Positions 884-33,202 of a stretch of 64,000 bases of DNA are shown here, in pieces. A program made the translations under genes and the position numbers. Position 1 is the first letter of the stretch; each line of letters opens with the position of its first letter. The notes under the pieces are model-generated. The model did not search any database and was not told the DNA's origin. It saw only the letters and a list, made by a program, of their open reading frames with translations. Source of the DNA: an uncultured Candidatus Peribacteria bacterium (GTDB taxonomy: Bacteria > Patescibacteriota > Gracilibacteria > UBA1369 > UM-FILTER-53-11); NCBI GenBank assembly GCA_964358095.1, contig CAYHNW010000001.1, forward strand, positions 71,108 through 135,107, in the 5' to 3' direction.

Positions 884-988
884 AAAAACGAAGAATCTAT
901 AACTTCATTTTAAAATCTTGAGTGGACGTAGCATTTTTGAAGGATGGGTCTAGTGGGCACCAGGCTGAAAAAATGCGAGTGCAGTTTC

Positions 989-1135
989 TCAAGAGGAAAA
1001 ACCTCGCCTCACTCATGAAAATGTTTTCTGATTCTTTACGAATTGAAACACATTTTCATGGTTCGGCGTCCTTCGCTACGGCAAAATCTCGCGGAGCTCG
1101 TTTTGCCTTCGCTGCGGAACGGTTTTTTCGCACTT
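989..1135 (-). repeat. Y-element copy 2: about 147-nt non-coding repeat homologous to 24286-24431
   Basis: The reverse complement aligns with 24286-24431. Shared blocks are AAGTGCGA, TCCG, CGAGCT, GGACGCCGAAC, AAAATG, TT.AATT.GTAAA.AAT.AG, CATTTT, GAGGCGAG and CCTCTTGA, in the same order and at the same spacing (55 vs 56 nt between the first two long blocks). No common reading frame exists. Confidence 0.6.
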
Positions 1136-1138
1136 TGT

Positions 1139-1178
1139 CATAAAAAGTTTAGAAAAATTTAATCTTCATATGGTATGC
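1139..1178 (+). promoter_or_regulatory. conserved 40-nt upstream box (copy 1) with TGnTAT extended -10-like end, shared with comM upstream region
   Basis: cataaaaagtttagaAaaatttaatcttca tatggtatgc matches 45566-45605 at 29/30 plus 7/10 positions. It ends 7 nt before the GTG start (8 nt before the ATG in the other copy). Confidence 0.55.
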
Positions 1179-1185
1179 CAAGCGC

Positions 1186-2040
1186 GTGAAGAAATTTATC
1201 GCAGGCGTTTTTTCAATATTAATTTCCTCTGGCGTATTTTTATTTGAGGCACAGCCAGATGGGCTAATGCATGTGTATTTTTTAAATGTTGGCCAAGGCG
1301 ACGCAACTCTTATTCGCACGCCATCGGGTAAAAATATTTTAATAGACGGCGGGCCTCAAAAAAACATTCTTTCTGAAATAAGAAATGCGCTCCCCTATCT
1401 TAAAAGCAAAATCGACATTGTAATTTTGACTCACGCGGATCGCGACCACATTGAAGGGTTAATCTCTATACTCGAACGCTACAAAGTGGAAAAAGTTTAC
1501 TCAACCGGACTTTATAAAAGTGATTACTTTTCAAATAAATTTCTAAAACTCATTCGTGAAAAAAATGTTCAGTTGGTGGTGACCAATTCTCTTTCGGATG
1601 TCAGACTTGAGGACGGCACGTTGATAGATTTTCTGTTTCCTCTAGCCCAGACCTTCGATTCGGGCGCAAAAGCAAACAGCAATTCGGTTGTGGCTCAAGT
1701 TGTATTTGGAGAAAATAAAATTTTACTTACAGGCGATGCGGATTGCGCCGAAGAAAACTCTATTATTAAATCCGGGGTAGAATTAAAATCGAACATTCTA
1801 AAAGTTGGACATCATGGTTCACGCACCAGCACTTGTGAAACTTTTTTAGAGAAAGTAAAACCCAAAATCAGCGCGATTTCGGTGGGAGCAGATAATAAAT
1901 ATGGCCATCCGAACGGCGAACTTATGTCTCGGCTTAAAAAAATTCGAACTCAAATCTTGCGCACGGATAAAGACGGCCGCATAGAAATAACGCTCAATAA
2001 AAACGGTGTCACATCAATCAAAACTCAATCTATACGTTGA
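1186..2040 (+). CDS. ComEC/Rec2-family metallo-beta-lactamase domain protein (stand-alone, N-terminal signal/TM helix)
   Basis: MBL motifs HADRDHIEG, GDAD, LKVGHHGSRTS and YGHP. Hydrophobic N-terminus. GTG start. Confidence 0.8.
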   Translation: MKKFIAGVFSILISSGVFLFEAQPDGLMHVYFLNVGQGDATLIRTPSGKNILIDGGPQKNILSEIRNALPYLKSKIDIVILTHADRDHIEGLISILERYKVEKVYSTGLYKSDYFSNKFLKLIREKNVQLVVTNSLSDVRLEDGTLIDFLFPLAQTFDSGAKANSNSVVAQVVFGENKILLTGDADCAEENSIIKSGVELKSNILKVGHHGSRTSTCETFLEKVKPKISAISVGADNKYGHPNGELMSRLKKIRTQILRTDKDGRIEITLNKNGVTSIKTQSIR

Positions 2041-3284
2041 ATGTCGGCTCCAAGTTTGCGCAATTTCTCGTCAAATTTTTCGTAACCGCGGTCAATGTAT
2101 TGGATGTCTCGCACCACCGTTTTTCCTTTTGCCACGAGCGCCGCCAAAATCATTGCGGCACCGGCTCGCAAGTCCCAGCTTTTCACTTCACAACCGGTAA
2201 GATGCGTGGGCCCGGCAATAAGCGCCTCATGCGGATTCTGCATTTTTATATTGGCGCCCATTTTCACGAGTTCCGGGAAATATCTAAATCTGCCTTCAAA
2301 AAGGGCTTCGTGAATGTGACTTTCTCCATTGGCCTGTGTTAAAAGCACCGCAAACGGCGGCTGTAAGTCGGTTGGAAATCCGGGAAATATATTTGTCTGC
2401 AACCTTTTGCACGCGGAAACTTTTTGCATAGGAAAAACTTTGACTGAATTCTTTGAAACTTCAAATTTTACGCCCATGTCGCGCAATAAATTCCACATTG
2501 GATCCAAATCGTGAGGTACGATATTGCGCACCGTTATTCCGCCTCCACTCAAAACCCCAGCCAAAACAAAAGTTCCGGCTTCCAAATAATCCGACCTAAT
2601 TTTGTAACCTTTCACTCCGCGTAATTTCTTTTTTCCGCGAATTCTCAGCGTATGAGTCCCAATTCCATAAATATCCACACCGATTGCTTCCAAAAATCTG
2701 CATAAATCTTGGATGTGAGGCTCAACGGCTACTAGTCTGATTATTGTTTCTCCTGTTGTGCGCGCCGCAGCCATAATCGCATTTTCTGTAGCAGTAACGC
2801 TAAATTCCGGCATCACGACATCGCGCGCCAAAGGTTTTCCGGCAAAAATAATTTCATCTTTCGCACTCGGCATTCTTTTTGCACCGAGTTTTTCTAAAAT
2901 ATATGTGTGAGTATCAATGGATCTGGCTCCAAGCACGCATCCTCCGGGATACGGCGAGTGTGCACGTCCGGTTCTGGCTAATAGCGGCCCGATCAACAAC
3001 ACTGAGGCACGCATTTTGCAGCACAAATGGCTTAGGATCTGGGTGTGTTTTATCGCATGTGTCCGAATGCTAACGGTGTGATTCTTGAATTCAACCTCAC
3101 TGCCAAGCGACTTTAGAATTCCCAGCATTGTGTGAATATCAGCAATATCCGGCACATTTATAAATGTGCATTTTTGATCCGTTAAAAGTGTTGCCGCCAA
3201 AATTGGCAGAGCGGCATTTTTTGAACCGCCGATCTTAACTTCACCGTGCAGCTTTTTTTCACCATTAATTACAAAACTTGGCAT
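2025..3284 (-). CDS. murA: UDP-N-acetylglucosamine 1-carboxyvinyltransferase
   Basis: 419 aa. N-terminus resembles GGSKNAALPILAATLL, with the catalytic-loop Cys in PGGCVLGARSIDTH. Full-length EPSP-synthase/MurA fold pattern. Confidence 0.95.
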   Translation of the reverse strand: MPSFVINGEKKLHGEVKIGGSKNAALPILAATLLTDQKCTFINVPDIADIHTMLGILKSLGSEVEFKNHTVSIRTHAIKHTQILSHLCCKMRASVLLIGPLLARTGRAHSPYPGGCVLGARSIDTHTYILEKLGAKRMPSAKDEIIFAGKPLARDVVMPEFSVTATENAIMAAARTTGETIIRLVAVEPHIQDLCRFLEAIGVDIYGIGTHTLRIRGKKKLRGVKGYKIRSDYLEAGTFVLAGVLSGGGITVRNIVPHDLDPMWNLLRDMGVKFEVSKNSVKVFPMQKVSACKRLQTNIFPGFPTDLQPPFAVLLTQANGESHIHEALFEGRFRYFPELVKMGANIKMQNPHEALIAGPTHLTGCEVKSWDLRAGAAMILAALVAKGKTVVRDIQYIDRGYEKFDEKLRKLGADIQRID

Positions 3285-3323
3285 GTGTCGCCTATTATAT
3301 CAGATTTACGCTATAATGCAGCC

Positions 3324-4685
3324 GTGCAAAATGTAAGCTTTATTGCAGCCAAAGCGCGAGAAGTTTCCGCTCGTTTTGGTATGTTTTCTACAGATGCCAA
3401 GAATGAAATTTTGTTAAAAATCGCAGAAAGATTAAAAGAAGATACTGCCCGAATTCTAAAAGCCAATGCAAAAGACGTTGCAGTCGGTAAGCGAAAAGGC
3501 CTTTCAGAAGGCTTGCTTGACCGCCTGCTACTCACGAAAGAACGTATGGAGGGAATAATCGCAGATGTACGTAACATTGCAGGTCTAAAAGATTACGTTG
3601 GGAGTGTGATAGAAGAGCGTGAACTCCCAAACGGATTATTTTTGCGTCGTCTTCGCGTGCCACTTGGAGTTGTTGCCATGATTTACGAAGCTCGCCCAAA
3701 TGTGACCGTTGATGCCGCATGCCTTTGCCTAAAAAGCGGTAATGCCGTAATTTTAAAAGGCGGATCAGATGCCATAAATTCAAACCGAGCGATAGTTTCG
3801 TCCATTCAAAGCGTATTAAAAGAAACCAGTTTTTTGGAGCCGACTTCTCGCCTTCAAGATTTGGTGCAACTGGTAGACAGCACCGATTACGCAGTCACAA
3901 AAGAGTTATTAAGTTTAAATAATTTTATTGACGTTGTGATTCCGCGCGGCAGCATGAAGTTAATAAACTTTGTCCGTGAAAATTCGCGAATTCCGGTGAT
4001 AGAAACGGGCGCGTCGGTGGTGCACGCATACATTCACGAAGATGCCGACGTTGCACAAGCCGTACAGATAATTATGAATGCAAAATTGCGCCGTGTTTCT
4101 ATTTGCAACACGCTGGATACGCTCTTGGTACACAAAAAAATCGCGCCGGTTTTACTGAAAGCTCTCGTTGAAGCGCTGCCAAAAAATCAGTATAAAGCAG
4201 ATCACCTGGAGCTGCGTGCCGACGCAGAAAGTTTTGGAATTTTGCGCAAACTTTCGAAGCCAAAAGAAATTGCAGCCAAGCCACCTCACCTATCGGCAGG
4301 CGGGCGGCTCGGCCTGTTCGAATTAAATTTTAAAAAATCCACACCGCAAGATTATTCCACGGAATTTTTGGATTATATTTTGGCAATTAAGACCGTGCGC
4401 TCGCTTGACGAGGCGTTAAATCATATTTCCCACCACAGCCTGCGCCATTCAGAGGCGATTGTTACCGCAGATGAGCGCGTAGCACAGCGTTTTCTGCAAA
4501 GTGTGGACGCGGCTTGCGTTTACTGGAACGCCTCAACGCAGTTTTCAGATGGCGGACAATTTGGACTCGGCGCAGAGATTGGAATATCCACTCAAAAGCT
4601 GCACGCGCGCGGCCCATTTGCGCTGGAAGGCCTAACAAGCTATAAGTGGGTAATAGAAGGCAACGGACAAATTAGGACACCATAA
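3324..4685 (+). CDS. proA: gamma-glutamyl phosphate reductase
   Basis: Aldehyde-dehydrogenase-type ProA motifs (VIYEARPNVT, GNAVILKGG, CN..DTLLVH, ASTQF.DGG.FG). The listed ORF start 3246 overlaps murA. In-frame GTG at 3324 (or 3285) is a more plausible start; the start is uncertain. Confidence 0.88.
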   Translation: MQNVSFIAAKAREVSARFGMFSTDAKNEILLKIAERLKEDTARILKANAKDVAVGKRKGLSEGLLDRLLLTKERMEGIIADVRNIAGLKDYVGSVIEERELPNGLFLRRLRVPLGVVAMIYEARPNVTVDAACLCLKSGNAVILKGGSDAINSNRAIVSSIQSVLKETSFLEPTSRLQDLVQLVDSTDYAVTKELLSLNNFIDVVIPRGSMKLINFVRENSRIPVIETGASVVHAYIHEDADVAQAVQIIMNAKLRRVSICNTLDTLLVHKKIAPVLLKALVEALPKNQYKADHLELRADAESFGILRKLSKPKEIAAKPPHLSAGGRLGLFELNFKKSTPQDYSTEFLDYILAIKTVRSLDEALNHISHHSLRHSEAIVTADERVAQRFLQSVDAACVYWNASTQFSDGGQFGLGAEIGISTQKLHARGPFALEGLTSYKWVIEGNGQIRTP

Positions 4686-4689
4686 AAAT

Positions 4690-5571
4690 ATGGGCAACAT
4701 AATCAAAAAGTCCGACGTTCAGAAAATATATCCGGTGCGCGATACGCGCTCTCACAAAGGGCAAAATGGCCGCATGCTTATTATTGGCGGTTCCATAAAT
4801 TATTTTGGCGCGCCGATTTTGGCCGGACTTGGCGCTCTTGGCAGTGGCGCAGATTTGGTTCATTTGCTTGTGCCGGAATGTAATTTTGATGTGAGCCGCG
4901 GCTTCTACGCGGATTTTATTGTGAAAAAATACCCTGGCGAACGAATAAATTCTGCAACTTTTGATGCAGCCAGTGATTTTTTTGAAAAAGTTGACTGCAT
5001 TTTAATTGGTCCGGGAGTCAGCGAAAATGAAGAGAGCTTGCAGGTAATAACGAAAATAGTTAAAAATGCGCCATGCCAAATAGTGCTGGATGCAGAAGCT
5101 ATTCCGGCAATTGCGCAGCTTGGATTGCCAGCGACTGGTGAGAACCCAGAAGACCGCGCGCGCAAACTCACAATAACTCCGCATCGTGGTGAAATGGACG
5201 AAATAACGGAAGGCTCATTGCCGGACGATCCATTTGCTCAAAATCAAATGGTAACGGATTTTGCGCAAAAATGGGGCGTAACAATTTTATTAAAAAATCC
5301 GCATGACATAATCGCGGCTCCGGGCAAACCAACCCGCACAAATGAAACCGGCAATGCAGGAATGACCGTTGGCGGCAGCGGAGACGTGCTCGCGGGATTT
5401 ACAGCATCTTTGATCGCTCAGCACTGTGCACCGTATGATGCTTGCCAGTGCGCCGCATTTCTATACGGACTCGCCGGTGACAATTTATTCAACGCAAAAG
5501 GCTACAATTTCACCGCGACGGATTTGGCATTGGAACTTCCATACACAATTAAATCGGTTATTGGCCGTTAG
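4690..5571 (+). CDS. nnrD: ADP-dependent NAD(P)H-hydrate dehydratase (YjeF C-terminal / carbohydrate-kinase family)
   Basis: HKG.NG...IIGGS near the N-terminus and GGSGDVLAG near the C-terminus. Confidence 0.8.
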   Translation: MGNIIKKSDVQKIYPVRDTRSHKGQNGRMLIIGGSINYFGAPILAGLGALGSGADLVHLLVPECNFDVSRGFYADFIVKKYPGERINSATFDAASDFFEKVDCILIGPGVSENEESLQVITKIVKNAPCQIVLDAEAIPAIAQLGLPATGENPEDRARKLTITPHRGEMDEITEGSLPDDPFAQNQMVTDFAQKWGVTILLKNPHDIIAAPGKPTRTNETGNAGMTVGGSGDVLAGFTASLIAQHCAPYDACQCAAFLYGLAGDNLFNAKGYNFTATDLALELPYTIKSVIGR

Positions 5572-5582
5572 ATTAGTTTTTC

Positions 5583-6227
5583 ATGCTTCAATTTAAAAAT
5601 ATTTTGCAATTTAGCGACCGCGTTCGGCACTGCGTTCTCTCGCGACACGAAAAACTTGAGGACGCGCAAAAAAATCTCGGCGCAGCTATTCCGCCAATTC
5701 AATTCGAGAGTCAACTTCATGGCGCAGATTCAATAATTGTTAAATGCGAGAAACTTTCAAAAAACGGCGACGCGCTGATGACAAACAAACCCGGGCTTCC
5801 AATTTTAATCCGCACCGCGGACTGTGCGAGCGTGATGCTTTTTGATCCGGTTAAAAACGTAATCGCAAATATTCACGCCGGCTGGCGCGGCACTGCGCAA
5901 AAAATAGTTCACGCGACTATTCAAAAAATGCACGAAGCTTTTGGCTGCAACGCAAGAGACTTAATGGCAGGCATTAGCCCTTCCATCGGCTCATGTTGCG
6001 CAGTTTTTACAAAACCATACGAAGAACTCCCAAAATTCCTACACACATACATTACCGAAGAAAATACTTTTAATCTTTGGGCGGCCATAGAAGGTCAATT
6101 GTGCGAATGCGGCGTGAAAAATATTGAAAATCCGCGCATTTGTACCATGTGTAATCCTGAAGATTTTTATTCTTACCGCCGCGGAGACAAGGAAAAACGC
6201 TCCGGCACTGCTATAATGCTCGTATGA
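5583..6227 (+). CDS. pgeF: YfiH/PgeF (DUF152) family purine-nucleoside phosphorylase / laccase-domain protein
   Basis: TADC..V.L.D...IANIHAGWRGT, the Cys pair and the C-terminal SYRR motif. Confidence 0.75.
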   Translation: MLQFKNILQFSDRVRHCVLSRHEKLEDAQKNLGAAIPPIQFESQLHGADSIIVKCEKLSKNGDALMTNKPGLPILIRTADCASVMLFDPVKNVIANIHAGWRGTAQKIVHATIQKMHEAFGCNARDLMAGISPSIGSCCAVFTKPYEELPKFLHTYITEENTFNLWAAIEGQLCECGVKNIENPRICTMCNPEDFYSYRRGDKEKRSGTAIMLV

Positions 6228-16445: not shown

Positions 16446-19400
16446 TTAGAAGCTCAAGCTGACTGTAGATGTCGGTAAGCTTGGAATGTCAACACCGTTT
16501 GTCCAGTCGTTCGTAGTTGTAGCGTGACTGGTAGCGGAGTTATCAGACCATATGAAGTTTGCACTTGATGTAAACATTTCCGTGTTGTTGGCAGGAGCTG
16601 ACGTAGGCGCATTTACCAGACCTAATCCTCCAGTTGTACTACCAACGATGGTGAAGTCACCAGTTGCTGAGAAGGCACCGACACCAGTATCTCCAAGAAC
16701 GTCAATATATACACCAGCCGTACCACCGGTAGAACCGGCAACAGCGCTATAGTACAAGAGATTGCCGACTACGGCATTGTTCAAGGTTGTCAACGAAGCA
16801 GTCGAACCGGTAACGCTTGTCGTAGACAGTGGCATACCGAAGTCACTACCAGCTGTATAAGTACCAGCCGTTCCACCTGGAAGGTCAAAGTAGACACCAG
16901 CTACAGAAGCTGCAGATAGAACACTATCCAAGTCCACAGAGTTCTCAAATCTTAACGTACCAGGAATTATAGAGCCACTTACCAGGAATGGTGCACCAAA
17001 TGCTGCGGATGAAGAATATGCCGTTACACCAGCTGCACCTGTCGCACCGATTGAAAGATAGAGTATTGGATCATTTGCTTGCGTGAAAGCACCATCACCA
17101 CCAACGTCTATGAAAGCACAACCGTTAGTAGCAACCGCATATGGACAAGAAGTACCATCGAATAACCATCTCCATATAACTCTCGTATTGGCAACAGATG
17201 CGTTTGCATCACTTGCCGTGGTGGCACCAGTTAATGATACCAATTCATCAATACCACCTACGGCGGTGTTAGATGCATTTGCCGTTGAACCAAGTCTTGT
17301 TGTGTCATCGGCAAGATAAGTAGAAATGCTTGTATTTGCGGCAGCGCCAGCAACGTTCGTTCTCACCAAGTAAGTATTTGTAGCACCTTTGGCGACAGTT
17401 TCTTCCGCCGTGGCCTTACCAAGAGTCAAAGTCTTATCCCATGTAACATAGACAGTATCTGTAGTTACAAGATTTGCGCTCATTGCAGTACCACCAGACT
17501 TCAGGTTAATACCCCTTCTGTTGCGGATTGAAACATTTGACGTGACGCTTGTCTCAGAACCAGTACCGATCTTTCTGTAAAGTTCAAAGTTATTTACAGT
17601 GATTGTAGCTGTTGAGTTATATTCAAACGCAAATCTCTTCAGAGAAACTGCCTCCTTGGCATCTGCAGCAATCGTGATTGCAGCAATGTCATTTTGACCG
17701 CTGTTAAGTTTTGTAGCAGCAGAAGCAAGTTTTGCAACTGTTGGAACAGTCTTGCGTACCACAACCGGATTAATACCGGTTGAGTTACCCATCGTGCTGA
17801 CAGACGTAGCATCTTTCTTTTCGCTTGAACCTTCACCTATTGATTCGAACGAGTTCGTATCAACTGTGGCAAGTTCGTTCAAACCAAGTCGGAAGCTAGT
17901 TCCAGATACAGCCCCAAGATCAATCGTGTTTATGTCGGCAAGAATAGTGATTGTTGCACTCTGATCCTTAGCTACATAGAAATTCAAATTCGTAAAAGAA
18001 GCTTTTCCAGAAGCCATGTTTGCATACATAGTCTCTGTAGTTCCATCTTTCTTAGGATAAGACAGACCAACCCTTATCACGTTGTTACCAGCCGTAAAGG
18101 AGGCTGGCGTGCCGTTGAACGCTGTGGAATTTGTAGTCGTACCAACAACGTCAAGTTTGGTGATAGTGGAAGCTTCGGTTGCAGAAGTAAATTTGTACTT
18201 GCCCACCGTAACGCCAGTAACACCGGCAACTGCGACAGAAGCATCCGGGCTACCCTCTTGTACCCCAACTAGAGTACCACCGGTTGCAACTGTCTTAAGT
18301 ACAGTTGGGTTACCAGTAGCTAAATTATTTGGACCAGTAGCAGAAGCTCCGGATGTTTGAGCGGCCAACACCGTGTTGCCGTCCTTGTCTTGAGCTTCGA
18401 TATCGTTTGCGGTAGCACCATTTAATATCAAATCAACACCAAAGTAGCGTGTTGCAGATATCGTATTCTTCAAATCAACCTTAACAAGCCATTTCTCGCT
18501 GATTGATTTTGCCAATGTGTAACCAAGGCTATTGAATTCAGCCTTGTAGTAACCGGCTGCAGCGCCAATAGTGCCTACCAAGCTCATACCGACTGGACCA
18601 GAAATACGTGTTTCGCTATTGTCAGCATTCACTTTGTAGAGAGACACCGTGTCAATAATTGTGTTAGCAGCTGTGTCACCATAACCACTGTTGTCGAATG
18701 TACCATCATCATCAGCGACCAAGCGCAGTGTTACTTTGGTAATTTTGACATCAACACCATCGCCTGCTTTTACAGCAAGGCCAAGTGCATTTACGCCTTT
18801 TTGACCCTTTACATGAGTTTCGGAAACCGGTGTTGAAGCTCTATCAACGGTGAGAGAAGCCGCAACTATGCTCATGCCCTTGCCAAATGTATTGCCACCA
18901 ACCACATCGGATGTAGCAATGAATTCATTGGCATCCGGATCCTTGATCATGCTTGCCTCTGCGAAGTCAACACCAGCCTTAATCGTGTTGCCTGCAACGA
19001 GAGAAGAATCAAGATCCACTAATACTGACAGAGACTTAGCTGTAGCGGATGTTAGATCAAAGTCATCACTGAACGCGTTCAAGTAAGTAGATGTTGCAAC
19101 GGAAGCGAGTGTACCGTTTGCTCCATTATCCACAAGTTTTACATTCTTCACCTTCGAAATCAAATCATGATCGAACACCTCAATATAATCATTACTAGCT
19201 GCCTCATCTGCCCAAGCAAGCGCCACAGCCACAGATGTTGGATAAACCAACGTAGCTGTTACGTCAGCAGCGGAAGTATCTGCAGGTGCTGCTGTTGTAA
19301 CCTTGGCATAGTAAGTGCCAGCCGTGCCGGCAGTTACTGTTGTCAATGTTAATTTAACTACATCGTTTAAGATAAGAGCATTGTCATCTGCATCGGTCTG

Positions 19401-21395
19401 AAAAGTGACAACGCCAGCTGTTGTAATGGCTCCGGCATCTAGATCTATAGTAGCACCGTCCGTACCCGCGCCCGTACCAGCCTGGAAAGAACCGGTTTTG
19501 TTATCAAATGCAGTCTGTTCAAGCCATACATAATAATCTTTGATTGTGACATTTCTATCTGAAGTCAAAGAGAAGTCGAACAGGTGAACATTAGTCGTAT
19601 TGATAGCGACGTTTTGAGCAACAGGACCATTATCGGCCAATGTGATCTTGCCACCTTGGAAGGTGGTGTCGGTCACGAGAACCTTGGTCATAGTATTCGT
19701 TACGCGTGCGCCATAACCAACTGTTGAATCAACAGCAACCAAGTCGGTTGATTCATCGAGATAGAAGTCTAGAGTGTCCGTTGTCTTGCCACCCAAAATA
19801 TCGCCCCATATGCGGAAGCTGCGATTGTTGTTTTTTGGAATCTTATATGGGGTAGCGAGAGTTAAGACCAAAAGATCAGAATCCATAGTAGCAACAGTAG
19901 CGAGAGCAACTGTCGTATCGGCGGAATCTGTCAATTTGAGGTTACTTAAAAAGCTCCTCGTAATTGTGCCACCATGAGTCAATGTGATTGACGAAAAGTT
20001 TATATCATTTGTACCAGCCGTAAGTTTGAAGTTAGAGACCTCAACTTGCTTTTGACCAAGTGTCGGCTTTGAAAGGACATTAGCTGGAGCAATAGTTATA
20101 GTTTGTACTACAGCGCCACCAACTGTCATCAAATTTGATGTAACCGGAACACCAGTAACACCGGTTGCGTTGCTCTTAACGGCGGCCGCATTTTCAATCG
20201 TGAATTGATGCGTGCTTGCTGCAGCTGCAGCAATAGTAAGGTCGCCCTTTAGAGTCAACGTGACAGGAGCACCGTCCGCCACGACAAGATTCAAACCGGC
20301 AAAGTCAACAGTGTTCGTATCTGCAGAAATCGTCTTGCCTGCCTTTAAGCGCGTCGCGCCTTTGTAAAGACTGACAGCCGAGAAATCTGTAGAAGCACCA
20401 CCTCCAGTTCTTTTGAAAGTGATTGTATCAATAGTTCCAGCGCCGCTAAAAGTGAACATGGCTATAGGAACGCCGTTTGCACCCGGGTTAATTGTCTTTG
20501 AAGCTGGAGAATCAGGAGCGAGAGATACAGCAATCGCACCAGCTACTGGGACAGTGTCCACAGGAATATCGTCCACAGGGACATCATCCACAGGGACATC
20601 GTCCACAGGAACATCATCCACAGGGATTACCTCAACCGCAACCAGTACGCCATCAACGACGTTCATACCCGTATCGAGAGCTTCTTGCATAACATCTAGC
20701 TCAACATCCGCCCTTTCTGCAGCAATAAGTATGACATCGAGCTCTTCTGTATCAGCGTAATCAACCTGAGCGTTCAATATTACAATAACCTCAGCTTTGA
20801 TTGCACCTTTTAATGGGTTGAGTTGCGTTACGCCCTCACCCTGACCCATCAATTTGTTCTCAACCATACAAGCCATAGCGTCTTTTGCCCAAATATCAAT
20901 AGAAGCCTTGTCCGTATAAGCGTTGAGCACTGTAGCGTCGCAGCTCTCGAGACCAAGAACCTTAGCGGCGGCAACAGCCATCTGTTCACGAGTCATATCA
21001 CTTGAGCCTCCGAACTTGCCGGTGCTTACACCGGAAGTCCAGCCAAGTGTATATGCAGTATTTGCAGCAGCTTCCCACCATTTGCCGCCAACGTCTCCAA
21101 ATGGAGACATTGCGCTCTCGCTAATAACATCAAAACCAGCAGCGAGCATTTGGTAACCAACTGCTCTGTTTACAATCGTCTTGAGGCCCGCATCTGCAAG
21201 TTCGCAGTCTATAATACCCTTTTCACAGGCCGCATCAACGGCATCTTTGGCCCAAGATACGCCAGCTTTAACGGCATCAGCACCTGTATAGGAGGCGCTT
21301 GCTGCAGGAATTCCCACAACGAATGTGGAAAGAATTGAGAATAACGCGACGACTGAAAGCCATCTGCGGATTCTCGTAAGTGTTTTTGCATTCAT
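16446..21395 (-). CDS. giant S-layer-type surface protein (1649 aa) with N-terminal signal peptide and SLH-like domains
   Basis: Signal peptide ...VVGIPAASA. Two SLH-like units (FGDVGGKWWEAAANTAY..MTREQMAVAAAKVL; YTDKASIDIWAKDAMACMVENKLM). (VDDVP)n linker. A long Thr/Ala/Gly/Val-rich beta-type body. Confidence 0.85.
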   Translation of the reverse strand: MNAKTLTRIRRWLSVVALFSILSTFVVGIPAASASYTGADAVKAGVSWAKDAVDAACEKGIIDCELADAGLKTIVNRAVGYQMLAAGFDVISESAMSPFGDVGGKWWEAAANTAYTLGWTSGVSTGKFGGSSDMTREQMAVAAAKVLGLESCDATVLNAYTDKASIDIWAKDAMACMVENKLMGQGEGVTQLNPLKGAIKAEVIVILNAQVDYADTEELDVILIAAERADVELDVMQEALDTGMNVVDGVLVAVEVIPVDDVPVDDVPVDDVPVDDIPVDTVPVAGAIAVSLAPDSPASKTINPGANGVPIAMFTFSGAGTIDTITFKRTGGGASTDFSAVSLYKGATRLKAGKTISADTNTVDFAGLNLVVADGAPVTLTLKGDLTIAAAAASTHQFTIENAAAVKSNATGVTGVPVTSNLMTVGGAVVQTITIAPANVLSKPTLGQKQVEVSNFKLTAGTNDINFSSITLTHGGTITRSFLSNLKLTDSADTTVALATVATMDSDLLVLTLATPYKIPKNNNRSFRIWGDILGGKTTDTLDFYLDESTDLVAVDSTVGYGARVTNTMTKVLVTDTTFQGGKITLADNGPVAQNVAINTTNVHLFDFSLTSDRNVTIKDYYVWLEQTAFDNKTGSFQAGTGAGTDGATIDLDAGAITTAGVVTFQTDADDNALILNDVVKLTLTTVTAGTAGTYYAKVTTAAPADTSAADVTATLVYPTSVAVALAWADEAASNDYIEVFDHDLISKVKNVKLVDNGANGTLASVATSTYLNAFSDDFDLTSATAKSLSVLVDLDSSLVAGNTIKAGVDFAEASMIKDPDANEFIATSDVVGGNTFGKGMSIVAASLTVDRASTPVSETHVKGQKGVNALGLAVKAGDGVDVKITKVTLRLVADDDGTFDNSGYGDTAANTIIDTVSLYKVNADNSETRISGPVGMSLVGTIGAAAGYYKAEFNSLGYTLAKSISEKWLVKVDLKNTISATRYFGVDLILNGATANDIEAQDKDGNTVLAAQTSGASATGPNNLATGNPTVLKTVATGGTLVGVQEGSPDASVAVAGVTGVTVGKYKFTSATEASTITKLDVVGTTTNSTAFNGTPASFTAGNNVIRVGLSYPKKDGTTETMYANMASGKASFTNLNFYVAKDQSATITILADINTIDLGAVSGTSFRLGLNELATVDTNSFESIGEGSSEKKDATSVSTMGNSTGINPVVVRKTVPTVAKLASAATKLNSGQNDIAAITIAADAKEAVSLKRFAFEYNSTATITVNNFELYRKIGTGSETSVTSNVSIRNRRGINLKSGGTAMSANLVTTDTVYVTWDKTLTLGKATAEETVAKGATNTYLVRTNVAGAAANTSISTYLADDTTRLGSTANASNTAVGGIDELVSLTGATTASDANASVANTRVIWRWLFDGTSCPYAVATNGCAFIDVGGDGAFTQANDPILYLSIGATGAAGVTAYSSSAAFGAPFLVSGSIIPGTLRFENSVDLDSVLSAASVAGVYFDLPGGTAGTYTAGSDFGMPLSTTSVTGSTASLTTLNNAVVGNLLYYSAVAGSTGGTAGVYIDVLGDTGVGAFSATGDFTIVGSTTGGLGLVNAPTSAPANNTEMFTSSANFIWSDNSATSHATTTNDWTNGVDIPSLPTSTVSLSF
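20556..20628 (-). repeat. about 5 tandem copies of a 15-bp unit (gtccacaggRacatc) encoding (VDDVP)n
   Basis: Read directly. In-frame within the S-layer gene. Confidence 0.85.
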
Positions 21396-21724: not shown

Positions 21725-21930
21725 ACTCATAATATGGTTAAAAGTTAGACAATAACTCACTAAAAATTCTAACGGACACGAAGACTTGGCGGGTAGTTTC
21801 ACTTGTATCTAACAGGTTAAATCCCCTCTTTGCATTCAATAACCCTACTGGCATTTGTAACGGAGAAACTTTGGGTTTATTTCTAAAATCCAAGTGACAG
21901 AATATAGTTTTGTGGTAACATTTGTAGCGG

Positions 21931-22038
21931 TGGTATCGCGTATGGGATTTGGTCACACGTCATTCCGCCTTAGCGGAATGCGCGCGACCCCGCCTCGGTA
22001 AGCCTTTTCTAAAGGCTTACCTCCGGCATTCAAACCCC
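21931..22038 (-). ncRNA. X-element copy B: structured element ending in a copy of the tRNA-Glu 3' end
   Basis: Reverse strand: GGGGTTTG AATGCCG GA GGTAAGCC-tttagaaa-GGCTTACC GAGGCGGGGTCGCGCGC ATTCCGC-TAAG-GCGGAAT GACGTGTGACC AAATCCCATACGCGATACCA. Homologous to 24173-24282 and 31785-31895. Confidence 0.6.
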
Positions 22039-22089
22039 AATACGGTTCTGTGGAGCCGCTTAGTGTTTACCGATTAAACGTATGTAAAT

Positions 22090-22166
22090 TGGTACCGCGT
22101 ATGGGATTTGAACCCATGATTTCCTCCGTGAGAGGGAGGCGTCCTAGGCCACTAGACGAACGCGGC
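22090..22166 (-). tRNA. tRNA-Glu (anticodon CUC), CCA encoded
   Basis: GCCGCGT TC GTCT AGTGGCCTA GGAC G CCTCC CTCTCAC GGAGG AAATC ATGGG TTCAAAT CCCAT ACGCGGT A CCA folds as a cloverleaf. Confidence 0.9.
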
Positions 22167-22187
22167 GCGTACTTGCGCACTATGGTA

Positions 22188-22193
22188 TATAAT
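22188..22193 (+). promoter_or_regulatory. TATAAT -10 box 10 nt upstream of the dnaJ ATG (leaderless-type)
   Basis: Read directly. There is no Shine-Dalgarno between the box and the ATG. Confidence 0.4.
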
Positions 22194-22203
22194 CTACCAC
22201 GCT

Positions 22204-23340
22204 ATGGCCAGAGATTTTTATGAAATTCTAGGAGTAAATCGCAACGCTACAGAGGATGAAATCAAGCGTGCGTACCGGAAACTCGCACAGAAACACCATC
22301 CCGACAGAACAAAGGGAGACAAGGAGTCTGAAACCAAGTTTAAGGAGATTAATGCGGCATATGAGGTTTTATCGGATAAGAAGAAAAGAGGCCAGTATGA
22401 CCAGTTCGGAGAAAGTGTATTTACGGGTGGGGGCGACGGACAAGGATTTCCGGGCGGATTCGACTTCAGTGGATTTTCAGGGTTTGGGGGTGGAGGATTT
22501 GCAGATATATTTGAGTCTTTTTTTGGAGGGGGATCTACTAAATCGAGAGCCGGTGGGCAGCCGCTAGCGGGTGAAGATCGCGAAGTGCACCTTACTATCA
22601 GTTTTGAAGAGGCAGCATTTGGGGTCGAAAGGGAGGCGAAAGTTAACCGCGTGGGGGAATGTGAAGTTTGTAAAGGCAAAGGTGCGGCTCTGGGATCAAA
22701 AATAGTGCTGTGCGAAACATGCCGAGGTGCCGGAGAGGTGAAAACCGTGAGAAATACCATACTTGGACAAGTGAGTACCCGCCGGGTATGCGATGCCTGC
22801 TCAGGGGTAGGCAAGAGGCCAGAAAAGCCTTGTACAAGCTGTCGCGGTGCTGGCAGAGTTCGGCTATCCGAAAAATTACGCATAAAAATTCCGGCGGGCA
22901 TTGATGATGGTTCGACTATACGACTAGTCGGCAATGGAGATAGCGGCATGAGGGGCGGAGAAAGCGGTGATTTGTACGTAAACGTCACGATCACTCCGCA
23001 TAAGACATTTACCCGCAGAGGAGCCGATGTATATTCGGAACAAGGAATTCGCTTAGTACAGGCCGTCTTGGGGGATGACCTAGAGATTGAAACTGTTTAT
23101 GGACCAGTAAAAATGCACATACCAGCTGGCATCCAAGCCGGAAAAGCTTTTTTCCTAAAAGGATATGGCGTTCCAAAAATTAAAGGCATCGGAAAAGGAG
23201 ATCACTTTGTGACGATAAGAATTAAAATTCCACAGAAATTAACAAAAAGAGAGCACGAGCTCTACCACGAGTTAGCAAACGAAGAAGGGCTTAAAATAAA
23301 GGAAGACAAGGGGTTCTTTAAAAGAATAATTGGAGAGTAA
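22204..23340 (+). CDS. dnaJ: molecular chaperone DnaJ
   Basis: J-domain with HPD (KHHPDR), a G/F-rich region, and four CxxCxGxG zinc-finger motifs. Confidence 0.95.
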
Positions 23341-24032: not shown

Positions 24033-24108
24033 GGGTCGGTAGCTCAGTTGGTAGAGCAACAGCCTTTTAAGCTGATGGTCGCGGGTTCGATTCCCGCCCG
24101 ACCCACCA
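24033..24108 (+). tRNA. tRNA-Lys (anticodon UUU), CCA encoded
   Basis: GGGTCGG TA GCTC AGTTGGTA GAGC A ACAGC CTTTTAA GCTGA TGGTC GCGGG TTCGATT CCCGC CCGACCC A CCA. Confidence 0.92.
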
Positions 24109-24172: not shown

Positions 24173-24282
24173 GGGAATCGAATGCCGTAGGAAAGCCTTT
24201 AGAGAAGGCTTTCCGAGGCGGGGTCGCGCGCAATTTTGCTAAGGCAAAATTGACGCGTGACCGATTCCCGCCCGACCCACCA
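24173..24282 (+). ncRNA. X-element copy A: structured element ending in a 21-nt exact copy of the tRNA-Lys 3' end
   Basis: GGGAATCG AATGCCG TA GGAAAGCC-tttagagaa-GGCTTTCC GAGGCGGGGTCGCGCGC AATTTTGC-TAAG-GCAAAATT GACGCGTGAC CGATTCCCGCCCGACCCACCA. The last 21 nt are identical to 24088-24108. Confidence 0.65.
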
Positions 24283-24539: not shown

Positions 24540-24983
24540 ATGGAACTACTCACAATTAACGAAGCGGCATTATTCTCCGGTAAATCTATCCAGACTATCC
24601 GCCGCATGATCAAGCAAAAGAAAGTAACCGTAAAACGCCAAAAAACCCCTCAGGGATTCAATTATTTGGTTATTAAAGATTCATTATTGGAATCTATAAG
24701 TCGGGCTAGCCAGACACCTACTCAAGCTGAGCCGATTATTCAAGAGGATACCCGAGAACACCGCCCTATCACGGAGGCCACTTCTCCGGATCTTGAGCAG
24801 GTATTCAGACGTGAAATTGGACAGTTTAATACGACTATTCAAAAGCTTGTTGAGCAGAATCAAAAGGACAAAGAAGGATTTTTCCAATTGATAAAAACTT
24901 TTCAAGATCGCGTCGTGGTTTTAGAGGATCAAATAAAGCAATTGGGAGCTCCTCAAGCATCTTGGTGGCAATTCTGGAAATAA
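24540..24983 (+). CDS. helix-turn-helix (excisionase/MerR-superfamily HTH_17-like) DNA-binding protein with coiled-coil tail
   Basis: N-terminus LLTINEAALFSGKSIQTIRRMIKQKKV. Confidence 0.65.
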   Translation: MELLTINEAALFSGKSIQTIRRMIKQKKVTVKRQKTPQGFNYLVIKDSLLESISRASQTPTQAEPIIQEDTREHRPITEATSPDLEQVFRREIGQFNTTIQKLVEQNQKDKEGFFQLIKTFQDRVVVLEDQIKQLGAPQASWWQFWK

Positions 24984-30758: not shown

Positions 30759-31166
30759 ATGCAACTCATAAAGACACTGCGGCAATTCACGGTAGTGACT
30801 GGGCTCACCGTCTTGGCTCTGCTCTTGGTCAATGCCTTTGGAATTGACTTGGCAATGGCTCAGGGCGCAATTGATCCGGATGCAGATCAGCCAGGAATTA
30901 TCCGCCAACTTTCCGGCGGTCAAACTGGTTTGCGCGGTATGGTTCTCACACTCGTCAACTTTGGCCTTGGCTTCCTCGGCCTTCTTGCCGTAGTCATGGT
31001 GATATATGGTGGCTTCCTATATGTGAGTTCGGCCGGTAACGAAGAAAACGTGAACAAAGCGAAAAAAATTCTTCTTTATGCCGTGGTCGGTGTTGTTTTA
31101 ATCATCGCATCATTCGCTATAGTAAACACTCTTCTCAGCGCCGGTACAGCTGCTAGAGGAGCTTAG
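30759..31166 (+). CDS. TrbC/VirB2-like (T4SS-pilin-type) small membrane protein common in CPR genomes
   Basis: Signal peptide ending AMAQG and two TM helices flanking IYGGFLYVSSAGNEENVNKAKKIL. Confidence 0.7.
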   Translation: MQLIKTLRQFTVVTGLTVLALLLVNAFGIDLAMAQGAIDPDADQPGIIRQLSGGQTGLRGMVLTLVNFGLGFLGLLAVVMVIYGGFLYVSSAGNEENVNKAKKILLYAVVGVVLIIASFAIVNTLLSAGTAARGA

Positions 31167-31939: not shown

Positions 31940-32016
31940 TGGTCGGGGTGCTGGGATTCGAACCCAGGACCTCTTGCTCCCAAAGCAAGCGCGCTAGCCA
32001 GCTACGCTACACCCCG
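31940..32016 (-). tRNA. tRNA-Pro (anticodon UGG), CCA encoded
   Basis: Reverse strand: CGGGGTG TA GCGT AGCTGGCTA GCGC G CTTGC TTTGGGA GCAAG AGGTC CTGGG TTCGAAT CCCAG CACCCCG A CCA. Confidence 0.92.
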
Positions 32017-32650: not shown

Positions 32651-33202
32651 ATGATTGACCTAGACAGGAAATCAGCCGGTAAAATACTCGGTGTCTCTGT
32701 GAGGACTATAGACAGATATATTAGAAGTGGCAAGCTCTTTGCGTATGAGCGGAGCGGCAGAATCTGGCTGAAGAAAGACGAAATTGCACGTTTTTCTCGC
32801 GAGAAAATGCCCGTGGTTTTACGACCAGTAGACAAGGAACGACGCAGTCCATCCGTGTCTACATTTGCCGCCAAATCTCAGGAAACGGATTTTTACAAAG
32901 ATCTGTACGAAGAGGCAAAGCGCGTGCTCACCGACTACCAGCAGAAGTTGGAACAGTCAAACTACAGAATCGGGCAGCTTGAATCTCAAACAACTCATCC
33001 AATTTCAATTCCAAAAACCACCGAGCGGTATGAAGATTCTGCGGCTCAAGAAATAATAAAGAGGGAACTTCATGACCGCGAACGTGAGCTTGCTCAATCA
33101 AAAGAACTTTTTAAACAAGAACGCGCAGGAAAAATAGCGTTCTCTATTTTGACGTATATATTGCTCGCGGCTATACCGTTGATTTGGTATTTACTGCGTT
33201 AA
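32651..33202 (+). CDS. HTH_17-like DNA-binding protein with coiled coil and C-terminal TM anchor
   Basis: SAGKILGVSVRTIDRYIRSGKL, and the C-terminal segment IAFSILTYILLAAIPLIWYLL. Confidence 0.6.
   Translation: MIDLDRKSAGKILGVSVRTIDRYIRSGKLFAYERSGRIWLKKDEIARFSREKMPVVLRPVDKERRSPSVSTFAAKSQETDFYKDLYEEAKRVLTDYQQKLEQSNYRIGQLESQTTHPISIPKTTERYEDSAAQEIIKRELHDRERELAQSKELFKQERAGKIAFSILTYILLAAIPLIWYLLR

Follow-up and report, generated by a model that had tools for sequence, protein, structure and literature searches.

Behind the tRNA-Glu(CUC) gene in a 64,000-nt stretch of an uncultured Candidatus Peribacteria genome (GenBank GCA_964358095.1, contig CAYHNW010000001.1, positions 71,108 to 135,107 of the forward strand; hereafter the window) lies a 108-nt element belonging to a family of structured RNA modules in tRNA 3′ trailers, for which we use the working name X. 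We favour, with a confidence somewhat above even, the reading that X is a tRNA-trailer RNA module resembling the RtT repeats of Escherichia coli, brought in by a tRNA-targeted insertion and transcribed together with the tRNA.

A previous sequence-only reading had placed the element 51 nt downstream of tRNA-Glu(CUC) on the same strand, and the ARAGORN and Rfam calls agree with this, as does the sequence; all features of the locus lie on the minus strand, which that reading had not named (Table 1). It had also described a tail that repeats the tRNA from T loop to CCA with one mismatch, and the tail CAAATCCCATACGCGATACCA equals tRNA-Glu CAAATCCCATACGCGGTACCA at 20 of 21 positions from C56 to the CCA, the lone difference being G to A at 21936 (the tRNA 3′ end reads ...TTCAAATCCCATACGCGGTACCA). 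The proposed pairing of the first 8 nt, GGGGTTTG, with CAAATCCC of the tail, which includes one G.U pair, was recovered both in the sequence and in a predicted three-way-junction fold. These 8 nt are the 5′ strand of the closing helix, P1, and are antisense to C56..C63 of both the tRNA and the tail; together with the next GAA they are antisense to U54..C63 of the real tRNA T loop. The first 8 nt of the tail supply the 3′ strand of P1, the remainder being single-stranded in the isolated element. The spacer is weakly conserved and homologous to that of the orthologous Glu copy in a related genome (L244; L numbers are our locus labels), and its 3′ bases CGTAT (22044..22040) could lengthen P1 over a 1-nt bulge.

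The window contains three occurrences of the 18-nt core motif where 0.03 would be expected, and a covariance model matches there exactly three times (Glu, Lys and Pro copies; E = 1e-20 to 1e-24), so the family is not a product of chance. Membership in a structured family following tRNA genes, which had been proposed from the sequence, was thereby upheld with three window copies and covariance-model matches elsewhere, and the repeated tRNA 3′ end and the 5′ end paired with it both proved general to the family. The Lys core is the nearest relative of the Glu core in the window. At the Pro copy the tail equals the tRNA only through position 67 (12 nt) and is decayed beyond, and because a conserved U-A pair of P3 is mismatched in its core, this copy looks partly degenerate. 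The covariance model finds no element at the tRNA-Thr/tRNA-Tyr pair of the window.

Family size and placement

The element set was assembled with a three-part pattern scan of metagenome contigs, supplemented by five real matches from a genome collection; together these gave 76 distinct elements. A covariance model built from 68 elements found 102 copies in 85 loci on contigs of the Candidate Phyla Radiation (CPR; Patescibacteria). An earlier, looser two-part pattern scan of the genome collection had returned 5 real loci of 120 among the matches listed, the rest being chance matches from GC-rich genomes. All five genome matches were Patescibacteria (Saccharimonadales, Saccharibacteria, Levyibacteriota, a ‘Patescibacteria group’ metagenome-assembled genome and one uncultured bacterium), and the taxonomic range given here rests on these five together with neighbouring proteins. 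Homologues of DnaJ put the window itself in a CPR lineage resembling Peregrinibacteria. Scanning viral contigs gave one chance match and no real copy.

Wherever enough upstream sequence was available, the element followed a tRNA gene of the same strand at a distance of 0-95 nt, usually 51-58 nt. At least 17 tRNA isotypes carry X, and so do about half of the tRNA genes in the sampled loci (64 of 130 by the strict pattern, more with divergent copies); many tRNAs in X-bearing genomes have no element, and some elements lie between two tRNA genes of one cluster (for example, L125, L146, L210 and L215). Rfam 15 returned no family for X at the gathering score in the window, at E <= 10 in 21800..22250 or at E <= 1 in seven other loci, and models of self-cleaving ribozymes and of group I and II introns gave no match at the same thresholds and loci. 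ARAGORN and RF00005 call only the upstream tRNA, so that neither identifies the element as a tRNA or tRNA pseudogene. The tRNA-trailer layout has been known since work on E. coli tyrT, but a covarying family over most isotypes of the CPR is apparently undescribed, the literature searched holding no account of it.

Fold and covariation

The Glu element is predicted to fold as a three-way junction of -60.1 kcal/mol (z = -7.1), and none of 200 dinucleotide shuffles folded as well. P1 joins the 5′ end of the element to the first 8 nt of the tail and is followed by the junction segment J1/2 (AAU). P2 (22025..21992 in the Glu copy) has a GCC/GGC base, an internal loop of G(G/C)A opposite GA and a variable hairpin, and is separated by J2/3 (GG) from P3 (21989..21951), a long hairpin with a bulged A, a G.U pair and the 3′ end GUGAC, which immediately precedes C56.

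Covariation was counted on the 68-sequence alignment, with shuffles and a shifted structure as controls. Standard pairs filled 91% of cells compared to 80% in shuffles, and double-sided changes numbered 162 against 41 expected, a count reached by none of 500 shuffles; pairing fell to 30-44% once partners were slid, which destroyed the signal. The 5′ strand of P1 tracks the variable T-loop and T-stem positions of the local tRNA, as seen for tRNA position 59 and its partner (UA 39, AU 12, CG 11, GC 4). In divergent copies the GCC/GGC base of P2 is swapped compensatorily to GUC/GAC, GGC/GCC or ACC/GGU, and at tRNA-Ala(GGC), where the element is kept at all four orthologous loci, arm, tail and T stem change in step. 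The G.U pair of P3 is present in 68 of 68 collected copies, and the fold is therefore that of the sense-strand RNA. These results indicate that a sense-strand RNA fold is under selection. Pairing that prolongs P1 into the acceptor part of the tail was only weakly enriched (-4.45 vs. -3.64 kcal/mol, p = 0.009). Kink-turn, C/D-box and hammerhead readings of the conserved loops were dropped, as these motifs vary across subclasses.

Table 1 Features of the X loci in the window and of the E. coli comparison locus
Feature	Coordinates	Strand	Evidence or remarks
tRNA-Glu(CUC)	22166..22090	minus	complete, CCA encoded; ARAGORN and Rfam RF00005, 61 bits
Proximal copy of 21-nt repeat, tRNA-Glu C56..A76	22110..22090	minus	sequence
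Spacer from tRNA-Glu to element, 51 nt	22089..22039	minus	sequence
Glu element, 108 nt	22038..21931	minus	sequence
P1 5′ strand, GGGGTTTG	22038..22031	minus	fold and covariation with tRNA positions 59-65 (68 copies)
Conserved core (J1/2, P2, J2/3, P3)	22030..21952	minus	fold, consensus, covariation
Tail CAAATCCCATACGCGATACCA, distal copy of tRNA-Glu C56..A76	21951..21931	minus	sequence; 20/21 identical
Lys copy	24173..24282	plus	behind tRNA-Lys(UUU) 24033..24108; spacer 64 nt; tail 21/21 identical
Pro copy	31893..about 31792	minus	behind tRNA-Pro(UGG) 31940..32016; fold z = -3.1
E. coli RtT units (positions in L246)	311-442, 489-620, 667-798, 964-1095		RF00391, 133-138 bits

Target duplication and decay of the tail

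Across the family the repeat always starts at C56, while its right edge is usually the tRNA 3′ end and sometimes lies up to 12 nt beyond; tandem units lengthen the repeat. Beyond 21931, where the Glu tail of the window ends, the sequence aligns collinearly with that immediately following tRNA-Glu in L241, a relative without the element. The clearest case is the Lys locus, where the flank resumes directly after the CCA of the tail when compared with the empty locus of L244 (AATAAGTGCGAG vs. TAATAGGTGCGAG). Since the flanks match empty relatives, the unit comprises spacer and core bounded by a direct duplication of C56..A76; such a unit either was inserted or can be removed through recombination of its repeats. 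The conserved core measures about 80-90 nt, the spacer is variable and the whole module spans about 110 nt.

Mismatches between tail and tRNA amounted to 6.6% per site in the P1 part and 16-18% at positions 64-76. Tail identity was bimodal, with 52 of 78 tails free of mismatches at positions 64-72 and about a dozen wholly decayed, and this distribution, together with the mismatch rates, agrees better with tails that are young or gene-converted and decay later than with constant purifying selection on their acceptor part. Decay of the tail was not significantly correlated with decay of the core (rho = -0.15, p = 0.2) in a sample biased by the way it was collected.

Where a tRNA gene has no encoded CCA, the tail usually has none as well. 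Three copies are exceptions, L162 4264-4367 (tRNA-Ser(CGA)), L126 3956-4059 and L239 63-182, where the tail has CCA and the adjacent tRNA gene or its remnant does not encode it (e.g., gene ...CCGCAT vs. tail ...CCGCCA), and L203 is the reverse case, with CCA in the tRNA gene and not in the tail. At L159 (972-1180, minus) the element sits directly at the CCA of tRNA-Met and its tail combines the T stem of tRNA-Met with a different acceptor strand (CGCTGGC); the complementary 7-mer GCCAGTG lies 26 nt upstream of the tRNA, which could be chance (about 0.3 matches expected).

Gain, loss and copy dynamics

Occupancy was compared between the window and six syntenic related genomes (Peregrinibacteria loci). 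The Glu and Lys elements are both present in the window and in L248, the Glu element alone is present in L244 and L247, and L241, L243 and L249 have neither, which gives a Glu copy in four of the seven genomes and a Lys copy in two. Units are gained or lost as repeat-bounded pieces at orthologous tRNA genes. The shared gene order runs from a large open reading frame (ORF) through tRNA-Glu, dnaJ, a 190-aa gene, tRNA-Lys and an HTH_17 gene to gdh and ppdK, and the tRNA-Glu and tRNA-Lys genes, with any element, flip orientation among these genomes: tRNA-Glu is read from the minus strand in three (the window, L241 and L247) and from the plus strand in the other four (L243, L244, L248 and L249), and for tRNA-Lys the minus orientation is confined to L241 and L249.

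Glu and Lys cores are mutually closest within a genome, both in the window and in L248 (149-268 and 2283-2402). Within such pairs P2 and distal P3 are near-identical, while the base of P3 and P1 differ compensatorily, as with GUCG/CGAC vs. GCCU/AGGC in L248. Such alike cores with compensatory changes at their ends therefore point to concerted evolution or repeated intragenomic copying, and the pattern is what gene conversion of the central part would be expected to leave. Tandem, degenerate and truncated copies also occur. Fragments truncated at the 5′ end (L093:3965, L152:472, L001:978) and at the 3′ end are equally frequent, at about three each, with no polar bias. Solo fragments, in which the final 5-25 nt of P3 are joined to a tail-like GTGACCGAATCC..., lie just 3′ of complete elements at L093 3940-3970, L152 465-500 and L001 960-1000.

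These dynamics bear on whether X is an active mobile element without ORFs, whose insertion just 5′ of C56 duplicates the target, a reading that we consider distinctly unlikely. X RNA or a single-stranded copy would find the tRNA gene by T-loop complementarity of its arm or tail, possibly through target-primed reverse transcription from a DNA nick in the T loop with the enzyme supplied in trans; a second, staggered cut, made at the tRNA end or slightly beyond it, would then be repaired into a duplicated C56..A76, so that both copies would be native to the new tRNA and the gene would stay intact. Such a route accounts for a fixed junction between core and C56 alongside a variable one at the other side (A76 plus 0 to 12 nt, then spacer). 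It also accounts for repeats that both match the local tRNA in nearly all copies with a proximal repeat and over at least 17 isotypes (exceptions, L159 and L169), which Campbell-type integration cannot easily produce. The patchy occupancy among close relatives, the homologous spacers behind different tRNAs, the existence of 5′-truncated fragments and the copy behind tRNA-Ser(CGA) in L162, whose antisense arm fits the tail of tRNA-Ser(UGA) better than its own, point the same way. However, no reverse transcriptase, transposase or nuclease is associated with X among the neighbour proteins of its loci or in the window, 3′ truncation is as common as 5′ truncation, and loss alone, by recombination between repeats, can produce patchy occupancy. 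The likeness of cores within a genome, with ends differing compensatorily, fits gene conversion of the central part, and bacteria are not known to have SINE-like (short interspersed nuclear element) retrotransposition, which also counts against mobility of this kind.

It is similarly improbable, in our estimate, that X represents a new class of RNA-structured element without ORFs that homes to the T loop of tRNA genes. Tied to that proposal, and with as little expectation on our part, is the idea that arm and tail would choose the site by base pairing and that the core would serve as a handle or catalyst for the insertion machinery; if so, that process would have left the RtT repeats of E. coli as a fossil.

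One locus has a different arrangement. At L162 3334-3510 (minus) the 5′ half of tRNA-Ser(UGA), comprising the acceptor strand, D arm and anticodon arm, runs straight into the element, whose tail holds the matching 3′ acceptor strand and CCA. It represents a deletion product or else a tRNA gene that has been interrupted. Its arm and a 23-nt upstream piece recur in the adjacent copy behind tRNA-Ser(CGA). Taken with the strand-swapped fold that is predicted for tRNA and element together (see below), this locus could suggest an intron-like or split gene, in which the tRNA would be made by removing everything from the proximal C56 through GUGAC, with the tail as alternative 3′ exon. We find this scarcely credible, given that a complete, normal tRNA lies upstream in all other cases, that the proximal copy is the functional one where the two differ (Glu in the window, L093), that excision at the helix ends would not restore T54-Psi55, and that there is no bulge-helix-bulge, group I or II feature or Rfam match.

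Genomic context and islands

The three window copies are flanked by ordinary housekeeping genes, and an all-against-all clustering of neighbour proteins from the 85 loci found no recurrent family, the top cluster being a spurious ORF that crosses the element. A 1649-aa ORF (16446-21395), whose relatives have no recorded Pfam domain, adjoins the tRNA-Glu locus, and a small ORF resembling a pilin of type IV secretion systems (T4SS) lies at 30759-31166. Genes for HTH_17 proteins (excisionase-type helix-turn-helix) stand beside tRNA-Lys (24540-24983) and tRNA-Pro (32651-33202), and the one beside tRNA-Lys is also found in relatives without the element.

At four loci (L171, L198, L231 and L126) unrelated DNA separates the tRNA from a stretch made of the last about 6 nt of the tRNA, spacer, element and tail. 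At L171 (about 1050-6050) the inserted DNA measures 3.6 kb and has genes for an HNH endonuclease and a DUF4145 protein; like the other islands, it lies outside the X unit and lacks an integrase. We rejected these islands as parts of X, since they are separate insertions at the extreme tRNA 3′ end, and their placement implies that the tRNA 3′ end and the tail are both landing sites for other islands.

Whether X itself is the scar of an integrase, with the tail as attR, the tRNA 3′ end as attL and the core as an attP arm left after deletion of the cargo, was weighed against the same loci. Direct repeats that begin in the T loop and reach or pass the tRNA 3′ end are reportedly the classic signature of tRNA-targeting integrases, tandem units and solo tail fragments occur, and unrelated islands do integrate at these tRNAs, but in every copy the repeats enclose only spacer and core, with no integrase or cargo. 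The islands lie upstream of a retained tRNA-end remnant and spacer, and hence mark separate events. Moreover, compensatory changes and a conserved G.U pair suit RNA and not protein-binding DNA arms, related cores on intact tRNAs of at least 17 isotypes would demand constant re-tailoring of attP, and a double-stranded circle of 150-175 bp is implausible, all of which makes a scar very improbable.

Transcription, processing and a possible role in tRNA maturation

No promoter or terminator is predicted between tRNA-Glu and the element on the same strand in the window, some copies lie between two tRNA genes, and orientation is strictly that of the tRNA. Because of these features, and because the annotated E. 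coli RttR RNA starts 8 nt past tyrV and ends exactly at the repeated CCA, co-transcription of the element with its tRNA is plausible.

If the two share a transcript, X could act in cis as a host-beneficial module of tRNA maturation or quality control, an alternative that we doubt, although we hold it to be the foremost one. The arm would capture the 3′ part of the upstream tRNA and the tail would replace it in the acceptor and T stems, and this strand-swapped precursor would control or protect 5′ and 3′ processing of the tRNA before resolving into free tRNA and module. The tail spans exactly what rebuilds the T stem, acceptor stem and CCA, and the invariant GAA next to P1 complements U54-U55-C56, which is present only in the real tRNA. 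In minimum-free-energy folds of tRNA plus element, the 5′ acceptor strand of the tRNA pairs with the distal tail at 52 of 52 loci. Also in favour of this alternative, orthologous tRNA-Ala loci retain X and its arm and tail co-evolve there with the T stem, and about half of the tRNA genes in these genomes carry X. Yet the energetic gain is mostly unspecific (-6.6 kcal/mol in the wild type, -5.6 with GAA changed to GCC and -4.4 with the distal acceptor strand destroyed), and the energy model omits two factors that work in favour of the ordinary tRNA, namely its tertiary structure and folding during transcription. The corresponding tRNA genes of close relatives lack the element, the core stays intact in copies whose acceptor part has decayed, and many tRNAs in the same genomes do without X.

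Proposed mechanism

We therefore return to the RtT-like trailer module as our preferred account. At the DNA level, X would be an insertion of a variable spacer and the core between direct copies of the segment from C56 to the tRNA 3′ end. At the RNA level, it would be read in the direction of the tRNA, most likely within the tRNA transcript, and would fold as a three-way junction whose P1 is built from the duplicated 3′ strand of T loop and T stem and a locus-specific antisense 5′ strand, with the conserved nucleotides placed in P2, P3 and the junction. Tail positions 64-76 would be mainly a by-product of the duplication, their tRNA identity being kept by youth or gene conversion and lost when a copy dies. 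Units would come and go at orthologous tRNA genes, duplicate in tandem and evolve in concert within a genome, and the X RNA would probably be excised from the tRNA precursor and trimmed by tRNA-maturation enzymes, by analogy with RtT and RttR.

Several points weigh against this account. Transcription and processing of the CPR copies, the mechanism of insertion and the balance between a host role and a selfish one are matters that we infer, and no insertion machinery was identified among the neighbours of X loci. Persistence at orthologous loci, despite the ease of recombination between repeats, could mean that the host benefits. The account names no partner or activity, although the near-invariance of the junction nucleotides points to a specific one; the ‘invariant’ positions are in part a matter of ascertainment, because most copies were gathered with a fixed sequence pattern, and two copies found through synteny in L248 have GAGGCAAG in place of GAGGCGGGG. 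As to the RtT analogy, the RtT model RF00391 misses X at E <= 10 in 21800..22250 and at E <= 1 in seven other loci, the X covariance model reaches RtT via P1 and tail only (11 bits), and X and RtT are only possibly related by descent.

X would bring an abundant, conserved and structured RNA family into a radiation for which hardly any non-coding RNA has been charted, and the decades-old orphan RtT repeats of E. coli would gain hundreds of diverse comparators together with a design rule common to both, namely a T-loop antisense arm, a core and a tRNA 3′ end. Were X to insert itself, it would exemplify a new way of targeting tRNA genes harmlessly, and were it to act on the tRNA precursor, it would reveal a new layer of tRNA maturation in minimal genomes. 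Duplicated tRNA ends can in addition mislead predictors of att sites and genomic islands.

Comparison with known systems

Among tRNA-targeting elements, Williams is said to have defined in 2002 a T-loop sublocation class with direct repeats from the T loop to the tRNA 3′ end or beyond. X shares with such attachment (att) sites a tRNA repeat from the T loop to the 3′ end or past it and an intact tRNA gene, but has neither integrase nor cargo, measures only about 150 bp, carries a covarying core of RNA type and places one core family at many different tRNAs. SINEs and other products of target-primed reverse transcription, as well as Cas1-type integration, resemble X in having a duplicated flanking target with one sharp and one variable boundary, and X, like them, has no ORF and many copies, some truncated or decayed. 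Cas1-type integration duplicates a whole repeat. The duplication in X spans 19-33 bp and coincides with a functional RNA segment, unlike in these systems, and X differs further in that no mobilising enzyme was identified and no direct sign of new insertions was seen among its copies. We also rejected a miniature inverted-repeat transposable element, because the only terminal inverted repeat in X is P1, whose 3′ arm derives from the target, and because the duplication is 19-33 bp and not 2-10 bp.

Plant mitochondrial t-elements and the MALAT1 mascRNA are tRNA-like processing signals beside other transcripts. X similarly borrows features of tRNA, so that tRNA-processing enzymes could set its ends, but it is no cloverleaf mimic and holds only the 3′ strand of the T and acceptor stems.

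The closest resemblance is to RtT, which we compared in E. coli K-12 (NC_000913, 1286400-1287800, our L246; gathering score of RF00391, 45 bits). Four RtT units occur at tyrT-tyrV, one between both tRNA genes and three after tyrV (Table 1), each consisting of a spacer, the antisense arm GGGGAAGGAUGAG, a multi-hairpin core and the last 19 nt of tRNA-Tyr including CCA, and ending in AATCCTTCCCCCACCACCA. Papers citing the original work on RtT describe the RttR RNA as processed from the tyrT transcript and of unknown role (Bosl and Kersten 1991, via PMC3318445 and bioRxiv 10.1101/2024.07.17.603846). The structured part of each RtT unit opens with GGGGAAGG(A/G)UGAG, which is reverse-complementary to the 3′ strand of the tRNA-Tyr T stem and T loop, and its predicted closing helix of about 12 bp leaves an ACCA-like overhang, of which we found no mention in the literature searched.

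The two families differ in several respects. Their core sequences and helices cannot be aligned, and RtT is confined to one tRNA species in enterobacteria, whereas X occurs at at least 17 isotypes and about half of tRNA genes. The closing helix of RtT nearly reaches the discriminator base, while most X copies stop at about position 63, and RtT overlaps the small tpr ORF, whereas X has none. In other respects they are alike: X too lies directly downstream of a tRNA on the same strand, between tRNA genes and in tandem, and in both the unit closes with a repeat of the tRNA 3′ end that includes CCA and starts at A58 in RtT (19 nt) and at C56 in X (21 nt). In both, the closing 5′ arm is antisense to the 3′ strand of T loop and T stem (GGGGAAGGAUGAG followed by AA in RtT, GGGAUGAG followed by AAU in one subclass of X), and neither has an established function. 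Given this shared layout and the missing RF00391 match, X is best described as RtT-like and not as a member of that Rfam family.

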